DNA from: Catajapyx aquilonaris
Lineage: Eukaryota
Length of the DNA: 50,545 nucleotides
Reading direction: 5' to 3'
NCBI GenBank assembly: GCA_000934665.2
Contig: JYFJ02000726.1
Location: 62,001 to 112,545 of the forward strand
This document shows, one piece after another, positions 48 to 928 of the stretch. How positions within the stretch are numbered: position 1 is the stretch's first letter; each line of letters opens with the position of its first letter. The position numbers and the translations under genes were made by a program. Under the pieces are notes generated by a model. It saw only the letters and a program-made list of their open reading frames with translations. It was not told the DNA's origin and did not search any database.

Positions 48-743
48 ATGTCTGCGCTACCACCTCCTGGACTTCCGCCGCTTCCGAAAAGCTTAAGTGG
101 ACATTTAGGATTGTTGCAACAGCAAGCGAACTCGTCCCTGCAACCAGCGTCGCACAGTCAGCCTTCTACACACCATCAACATCCGCATCCGCCAAAAGCA
201 CCTCCCAAAGATCCGCCACCACCTCCACCTCCGCATCCACCAAAAGGTGCCCGCAGACGCAGCCTCCCAACCCATCCTGTTCATCATCCCCCGCCCCAAC
301 CAGACCCCTCGCATTCATCACGTTCCTCGCCAGAAAGCACCCTTGGATTTTACCCACCAACTCCACAGCCTCGCAGCCAACAGCCCCAACAGCAGCAGTC
401 GAGTAGCCGCCGTCGTTTGGATACCCAGCTGTCTCTCCTGAGGCAGGAGATGACTGGATTGCGACAGCTTGACCTCTCCCTACTGGCACAACTCTGGTCT
501 CTCCATGAATCGATACAGGAGGTGAAGTCATTGCTGCGGGATCCTATGGTTGCCTCATCTGGCGTGGCACCACCTGTTGGTGGATGGGTTGACCTGGAGG
601 GTCGACATTCCGATGCAAATTACTACATGGCCAGTGCCACCAATCCCTACGTGGGCATGAGGCTTGGACTGGGGCCACTGCCAGAACGTTACTCGCTGTC
701 AAGCACGTCTTCCGAGTCGAGCATCGAGTTTGGAGAGGTTTGA
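48..743 (+). CDS. FAM89: FAM89/LURAP-family leucine-rich adaptor protein, 231 aa, single coding exon
   Basis: ATG at 48 follows acceptor ttgcag (ends 33). N-terminal [11 protein letters not shown] and [37 protein letters not shown] match the recalled FAM89A/B LURAP motifs. Stop TGA 741-743. Confidence 0.85.
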
Positions 744-745
744 AG

Positions 746-928
746 ATGGATAAAGGCATGAGGAAACTCCCGTCGTGGATTACGGAGAAGGCGAAAGAAG
801 AGGTGAAGCCAGAGGCACAGAAAGAGTGTGTCCCGGTTAAAGTACGGAAGGTCCAGTATGTGATGAGTCCTGACGAGCTGGGGCAAGCTGCTAGACTAGC
901 GCTGGAAACTAGTAAGAAGGCTGAGTGA
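746..928 (+). CDS. CYREN: CYREN/MRI (C7orf49)-like microprotein, 60 aa, with Ku-binding motif
   Basis: MDKGMRKLPSWITEK...VRKVQYVMSPDELGQAARLALETSKKAE. RKLPSW fits the R-x-L-P-x-W Ku-binding motif. VQYVMSPDELGQAARLALE aligns with recalled human TVYCMNEAEIVDVALGILIE. ATG lies 2 nt after the FAM89 stop. Confidence 0.72.
   Translation: MDKGMRKLPSWITEKAKEEVKPEAQKECVPVKVRKVQYVMSPDELGQAARLALETSKKAE

Follow-up and report, generated by a model that had tools for sequence, protein, structure and literature searches.

A 50,545-nt stretch of genomic DNA (the window) carries near its start a LURAP/FAM89-family gene, here termed ORF A, whose stop codon is followed two nucleotides later by the start codon of a 60-codon reading frame, termed ORF B. 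This arrangement raises the questions of whether ORF B encodes a protein, whether such a protein would be made from the same mRNA as ORF A, and which known proteins it resembles. Our main reading, to which we assign a probability of roughly 0.55, is that ORF B shares its exon and its mature mRNA with the LURAP/FAM89 gene and, as the second cistron there, encodes a conserved, putative Ku80-binding microprotein. CYREN/MRI (modulator of retrovirus infection homologue) is itself already known; what we class as new here is the dicistronic setting for a CYREN/MRI-like microprotein of the Ku-binding type. In the article texts covered by a literature search there was no report of a dicistronic Ku-binding microprotein, of FAM89/LURAP paired with a second cistron or with a Ku-binding microprotein, or of the ORF B peptide motifs.

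Transcript and layout of the locus

The first bases of the window are intronic, and the exon that holds both reading frames opens after the AG at 32-33 (Table 1). The ORF A protein matched the Pfam LURAP family over residues 110-167 with an E-value of 3.9e-10 and 40.1 bits (gathering cut-off 25). FAM89 proteins are presumably members of this family, and the label "FAM89-like" given to ORF A in the original prediction holds only at the level of the Pfam LURAP family. The N-terminal half of the protein is rich in proline and glutamine, and the GC content of ORF A is 0.568. An in-frame TAA lies at the exon junction, five codons before the ATG at 48, as read from the loose end of the contig together with the window sequence; ATG 48 is thus the start of ORF A in the X1 transcript.

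The transcript evidence comes from X1, the one run listed for the locus and of unrecorded kind, which is read as RNA-derived because its contigs are spliced; at the neighbouring CCDC85-family gene, for example, one X1 contig skips four GT..AG introns. The X1 sequences are contigs rather than single molecules, and rare or minor isoforms are dropped from them. A contig of 1,266 letters covers 32-992 of the window with no differing letter, gap or joint, and about 305 further letters of this contig, which match nothing in the window, are taken to come from an upstream exon. The stretch 988-2237 is covered by another contig. ORF A and ORF B are therefore located on one mature, spliced transcript contig (from one run, and not a single molecule). 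There is no joint or loose end at 745/746 in the X1 contigs, and a transcript spliced directly to 746, named beforehand as evidence that would speak against the pairing, was not seen in X1.

The depth of the two contigs was 9.29 for 32-992 vs 32.6 for 988-2237, with the contig break at 988-992, about 60 nt past the ORF B stop. Possible sources of this step are 3' bias, a split between alleles in the coding part, and a second RNA restricted to the 3' untranslated region.

The TGA-AG-ATG geometry is exactly as had been claimed, with the TGA at 741-743, the AG at 744-745 and the ATG at 746, and the frame of ORF B is +2 with respect to that of ORF A. A stop-start scan of the window listed 13 pairs by geometry, and a recognisable downstream protein was found in the ORF A/ORF B pair only. 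The original prediction had called this a "second" coupled pair, which implies a first; no other pair with a recognisable protein was present among the 13 listed, and that part of the description is not borne out.

Table 1. Positions of the features discussed in the text, numbered from the first letter of the window
Feature	Coordinates	Strand	Evidence
3' splice acceptor (pyrimidine-rich tract and AG)	20-33	+	X1 contig starts on the window at 32
ORF A, 231 aa, LURAP/FAM89 family, TGA at 741-743	48-743	+	Pfam LURAP PF14854
Spacer AG, 2 nt, from ORF A stop to ORF B start	744-745	+	direct sequence reading
ORF B, predicted 60-aa microprotein, TGA at 926-928	746-928	+	homologues, composition, codon usage
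Putative APLF-type Ku-binding motif, R6-K-L-P-S-W11-I12	761-781	+	invariant R6, L8, P9, W11
Conserved C-terminal block K32...E54, KVRKVQYVMSPDELGQAARLALE	839-907	+	16 of 23 positions invariant
3' untranslated region, AT-rich, GC 0.37-0.40	929-2237	+	X1 contigs 32-992 and 988-2237
CCDC85-family gene	3967-6000	+	Pfam PF10226, E 3.8e-33
DDE_Tnp_4 (Harbinger-type transposase) open frames	6916-8107	+	E 1.4e-6 at 7361-7789
WDR26 exon pair, read through as one open frame	40424-40933	-	match to solved WDR26 chain

ORF B as a coding sequence and its relatives

The 60-aa translation of ORF B reads MDKGMRKLPSWITEK...VQYVMSPDELGQAARLALETSKKAE. Across 746-928 the other two frames contain 5 and 7 stops, and when the mononucleotides of ORF B were shuffled 20,000 times, 3.2% of the shuffles remained open. 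The GC content is 0.514 within ORF B vs 0.377 in the following 183 nt, and it is at the stop of ORF B that the value declines. Codon usage was scored as log-odds, trained on 1,407 codons from five long open frames with Pfam domains, ORF A included. ORF B scored +9.7 bits in frame, vs -24.4 and -40.9 bits in the other two frames. None of the 2,772 windows of 180 nt in 929-3880 reached +9.7 bits; among stop-free windows of the whole window, 25.7% of 10,107 did so, and because of this the codon-usage test alone is of moderate weight.

The ORF B protein was used as a phmmer query against 1,835,955,588 representative proteins at a threshold of E<=0.001, which gave three matches. Two of these, P0001 (63 aa, E 3.5e-5, 50% identity) and P0002 (61 aa, E 4.1e-5, 52% identity), were both aligned to ORF B residues 5-58. 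Identity between the two is 47% (E 6e-14); they come from different sources and are encoded on contigs of 900 and 898 nt, respectively. The third match, P0003 (587 aa, E 3.4e-4, no identity given), had 0 matched stretches; this repeat protein without an aligned stretch was considered spurious as a relative of ORF B and was excluded before alignment. P0003 is built of units of about 45 aa with VRQVMSCDEQGEARL, and its match is a low-complexity or repeat artefact.

The alignment of the ORF B protein with P0001 and P0002, termed A1, has 64 columns (P0003 left out), 22 of which are invariant. The invariant residues include M1, then R6, L8, P9 and W11 near the N-terminus, K58, and K32, R34, K35, Q37, Y38, V39, M40, S41, P42, E44, L45, A48, A49, R50, L53 and E54 within residues 32-54. 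The resulting patterns are R-x-L-P-x-W at the N-terminus and K-x-R-K-x-QYVMSP-x-EL-x-x-AAR in the C-terminal block, which are separated by a linker (residues 12-31, 20 residues) with zero invariant columns. The equal lengths, the pair of conserved blocks and the linker that varies freely between them together indicate selection on the protein. With two homologues of about 60 aa (63 and 61 aa) and 22 invariant alignment columns, the claim that ORF B is a conserved coding sequence is upheld; on this sequence evidence ORF B is very probably a real gene, and one that standard gene finders would probably overlook.

Further searches were made for relatives in other collections. A word-index search with ORF B alone among proteins of 33-105 aa gave no candidate, and a profile search at near lengths, with 23 candidates, recovered solely P0001 and P0002. 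The profile search of 4,130 word-sharing candidates of 112-2000 aa gave none at E<=10. No usable match was obtained from the ESM Atlas with ORF B or P0001 as queries, and the profile search of the PDB returned just two rows at chance level, with E-values of 0.061 and 1.2. A metagenome scan with A1 produced 240 pattern matches, 0 of which were confirmed, and a metagenome scan with a degenerate DNA pattern for Q-Y-V-M-S-P-x-E-L-x-x-A-A produced 0 matches.

A fusion of ORF B with ORF A by frameshift or readthrough was considered and set aside: ORF B lies in the +2 frame, this frame is closed upstream at 590, and the relatives are stand-alone proteins of about 60 aa.

The Ku-binding-type motif and comparison with CYREN/MRI

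The N-terminus of the ORF B protein reads DKGMRKLPSWITEK. The minimal Ku-binding core is defined as R-X-X-P-X-W in PMC4831024, where the human MRI-A peptide is printed as SETKTRVLPSWLTA. Six of the eight positions are identical between RKLPSWIT of ORF B and RVLPSWLT of human MRI-A, and one of the two that differ is L/I. The core R-x-x-P-x-W is present in all three family sequences (ORF B, P0001 and P0002), and it occurs three times in the 101,086 six-frame residues of the window; the narrower pattern R-x-LP-x-W-[MLIVF] has a single occurrence among these residues, which is in ORF B. The core alone is common, being reported in more than 600 human proteins (PMC4831024). In MRI, the residue after the tryptophan is Met in most species and Leu in human, and residues 15-20 turn helical on the Ku80 vWA domain, according to 10.64898/2026.07.22.740027. 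The corresponding residue is I12 in ORF B and M in both P0001 and P0002, thus hydrophobic as in MRI, and the AlphaFold2 model places a short helix at ORF B residues 10-13, the counterparts of MRI 15-20. With R6, P9 and W11, and also L8, invariant in 3/3 sequences and a core that fits R-X-X-P-X-W, the predicted presence in ORF B of a candidate Ku-binding-type motif is well founded at the level of sequence.

AlphaFold2 was run on A1 and gave a mean pLDDT of 71.0 and a pTM of 0.30, with a confident helix at 42-59, a mean pLDDT of 94 for residues 41-50, and a low-confidence linker. In the block K32...E54, a stretch predicted to form a strand is read as preceding a helix. In 10.64898/2026.07.22.740027 the conserved multimerisation domain of MRI spans residues 49-81 and contains a strand around 54-YCMN-57 and then a helix (58-81), and helix mutations at V64, L66, I68 and L69 are described as breaking multimers. 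ORF B has the invariant Y38-V-M-S41 and then the predicted helix 42-59, a resemblance to the MRI domain at the motif level. In a simple register from Y38, MRI V64/L66/I68/L69 pair with ORF B A48/R50/A52/L53, which are only partly hydrophobic. The ORF B homodimer prediction, made with the alignment not used, scored 0.03 vs a mark of 0.32, a value that speaks neither for nor against self-association. Of the "MRI core" that had been ascribed to ORF B, the Y-x-M-[SN] stretch followed by a predicted helix is present, and the hydrophobic pattern of the helix (A48/R50/A52/L53) is shared in part.

The human isoforms of CYREN/MRI are MRI1 (157 aa) and MRI2 (69 aa). Like CYREN/MRI, the ORF B protein is small and predicted to be mostly disordered, and has an N-terminal APLF-type motif R-x-LPSW-hydrophobic-T, a variable linker, and then a conserved Y-x-M-[SN] stretch and a helix (predicted in ORF B), a module which in MRI drives multimerisation; the order of these modules is that of the first half of CYREN/MRI. 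Unlike CYREN/MRI, ORF B is 60 aa in length without an XLF-like motif at its C-terminus, and is a downstream cistron whereas CYREN/MRI is a gene of its own; the hydrophobic pattern of the helix is just partly common to ORF B. Pfam, which we take to contain an MRI model, gave no family match, and hence no MRI-related one, for ORF B, P0001 or P0002 at E<=10. In the XLF-like motif of MRI, a conserved aromatic residue comes after a basic patch (PMC4831024). The C-termini of the three family sequences (...ETSKKAE, ...AQGKKTE and ...EKDKKK) are basic with no aromatic residue, and there is none after Y38 in ORF B or after the matching Tyr in P0001 and P0002. Human MRI2 likewise has no XLF-like motif, according to 10.64898/2026.07.22.740027. 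The description "CYREN/MRI-like" therefore stands for the Ku-type motif and for the Y-x-M-[SN] stretch with its helix, and does not extend to a Pfam MRI match at E<=10 or to an XLF-like motif. We say, from sequence, that ORF B would work like a minimal CYREN/MRI, the likeness being at the motif level; for true homology between the two we see about an even chance.

The Ku-binding motifs (A-KBMs) found in APLF and WRN have in common with ORF B the core R-X-X-P-X-W with basic residues before it, and in APLF the W is followed by M, as in P0001 and P0002. In APLF and WRN the motif lies inside large multidomain proteins, whereas here it heads a 60-aa protein. The MRI Ku-binding motif is described as conserved among vertebrates in PMC4831024. 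CYREN/MRI is described as the least conserved NHEJ protein in the accessible portion of 10.1101/2023.05.26.542399, where a sea-urchin fusion protein with a similar motif is the sole such case mentioned.

Proposed expression of ORF B, alternative readings and neighbouring genes

If both proteins are made from the one mRNA, ribosomes would terminate at the ORF A TGA and restart 2 nt on, at an ATG in good context (A at -3, which is the last base of the TGA, and G at +4). Leaky scanning is unlikely because seven ATGs intervene between the ORF A start and 746 (at 450, 505, 546, 584, 613, 627 and 657), and these ATGs, together with the 2-nt gap between stop and start, point to termination-reinitiation, which is what the arrangement most simply suggests. 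Under the usual eukaryotic scanning rules, reinitiation after a long ORF, here one of 231 codons, is inefficient. The RNA fold of 680-830 (151 nt) had a z-score of +0.69, with 148 of 200 shuffles folding at least as well, and Rfam gave 0 matches on 1-2500; no special RNA element was thus detected at the junction. The AG at 744-745 was proposed to lack a polypyrimidine tract, and in agreement with this the 30 nt upstream are 37% pyrimidine vs 67% before the used acceptor at 32-33. Owing to this purine-rich upstream sequence and the A at -3, AG 744-745 is a poor acceptor.

The seven intervening ATGs all cluster in 450-657; on the plus strand, positions 51-449, the first 400 nt or so after the ORF A start, contain no ATG in any frame.

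Viral termination-reinitiation sites have overlapping or adjacent stop and start codons. As at such sites, only a few bases separate the restart codon here from the point where a long upstream ORF stops; unlike them, the ORF A/ORF B junction has no identified upstream tethering element. A silkworm tricistronic mRNA likewise carries unrelated proteins on one capped mRNA and is ascribed to context-dependent scanning (PMC2978622), whereas here seven ATGs intervene and the stop-start gap is 2 nt.

Several other explanations of the locus were weighed against the main reading. That ORF B is a frame left open by chance in the LURAP/FAM89 3' untranslated region, giving no functional protein, would suit its short length, the 3.2% of shuffles that remain open and the 25.7% of stop-free windows in the whole window that equal its codon score. 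We consider it highly improbable in view of the block-wise conservation in relatives of about 60 aa, found with E-values of 3.5e-5 and 4.1e-5 in 1.84 billion proteins, and of the sharp fall in GC exactly at the ORF B stop. It is also conceivable that ORF B is a real microprotein made from a minor RNA of its own, and not from the dicistronic mRNA. Such an RNA could come from an internal transcription start in ORF A, or from cis-splicing or trans-splicing to AG 744-745, the ORF A region then being intron or upstream sequence for that isoform. An AG stands directly before ATG 746, reinitiation after long ORFs is normally poor, contigs drop rare variants, and the depths of 9.29 vs 32.6 may mean that more than one RNA species covers the locus. 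Set against these points, neither a joint nor a loose end is seen in X1 at 745/746, the acceptor is a poor one (37% vs 67% pyrimidine, and A at -3), and the depth step comes after ORF B rather than before it; we regard an RNA of its own as unlikely.

A further alternative concerns the identity of the protein rather than its expression, namely that ORF B is a real microprotein with a Ku-type short linear motif but shares no common origin with CYREN/MRI, its motif and strand-helix having arisen independently; its function may then differ from end-joining regulation. Convergence is usual for short linear motifs, APLF and WRN have this core motif too, and ORF B has no XLF-like tail and no profile-level similarity to known families (Pfam, PDB); the low conservation attributed to CYREN/MRI among NHEJ proteins in 10.1101/2023.05.26.542399 also fits this explanation. 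However, there are two separate resemblances (RKLPSWIT to RVLPSWLT, and Y-V-M-S plus helix to 54-YCMN-57 plus helix), which stand in the same order in two proteins that are both small and disordered. We hold independent origin to be possible, while leaning against it.

According to the main reading, a second cistron encoding a putative Ku80-binding microprotein, the ORF B protein would consist of about 60 residues, largely disordered, with two functional modules joined by a freely evolving linker. The first would be the N-terminal APLF-type Ku-binding motif R-x-L-P-S-W-I/M, which may dock on the vWA domain of Ku80, and the second the C-terminal QYVM with the amphipathic helix that follows, which may self-associate. 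Such a protein would be a modulator of non-homologous end joining, a minimal CYREN/MRI-like factor that lacks the XLF-like tail. In a broader version, ORF B would be the invertebrate CYREN/MRI, an old animal NHEJ regulator encoded as a stop-start reinitiated second cistron with the linkage conserved across phyla. We consider this version quite doubtful. If it were true, CYREN/MRI would have been scored as missing outside vertebrates because it sits as a 60-codon second cistron on LURAP/FAM89 mRNAs, and the dose of ORF B would be tied to the translation of a cytoskeletal adaptor.

The presence of a conserved 60-aa protein with a Ku-type motif and a similar second module in what is apparently a non-vertebrate animal suggests that disordered microproteins may have served in accessory Ku regulation for longer, and more widely, than annotated proteomes indicate. 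As a minimal natural version (motif, linker, helix), ORF B could be used for testing the role of each MRI module. The ORF A/ORF B pair would provide a clean example, from a cell rather than a virus, of one mRNA that encodes two unrelated proteins with just 2 nt between stop and start, usable for testing reinitiation after a long ORF in animals, and ORF B shows concretely what kind of gene is likely to escape annotation pipelines.

The neighbours of the pair in the window are ordinary animal genes (CCDC85, TBCC, WDR26, a dynein light intermediate chain and an LRR protein), along with a DDE_Tnp_4 fragment. The four introns of the CCDC85-family gene that the X1 contig skips are 184, 213, 98 and 57 nt in length, all of them GT..AG. 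After the DDE_Tnp_4 frames comes a gap of 18 nt and then an ORF of 98 aa whose tail is acidic; the region 6916-8107 is probably a decayed transposon, and may be the other coupled pair meant in the original prediction. The WDR26 exon matched a solved WDR26 chain, which we take to be human, with 72% and 81% identity over two aligned stretches (counted from the alignment). Judged by these values, the DNA would come from a non-vertebrate animal. Because residues 96-120 of this open frame have no counterpart in the solved chain, the frame is read as containing a short in-frame intron of about 75 nt.
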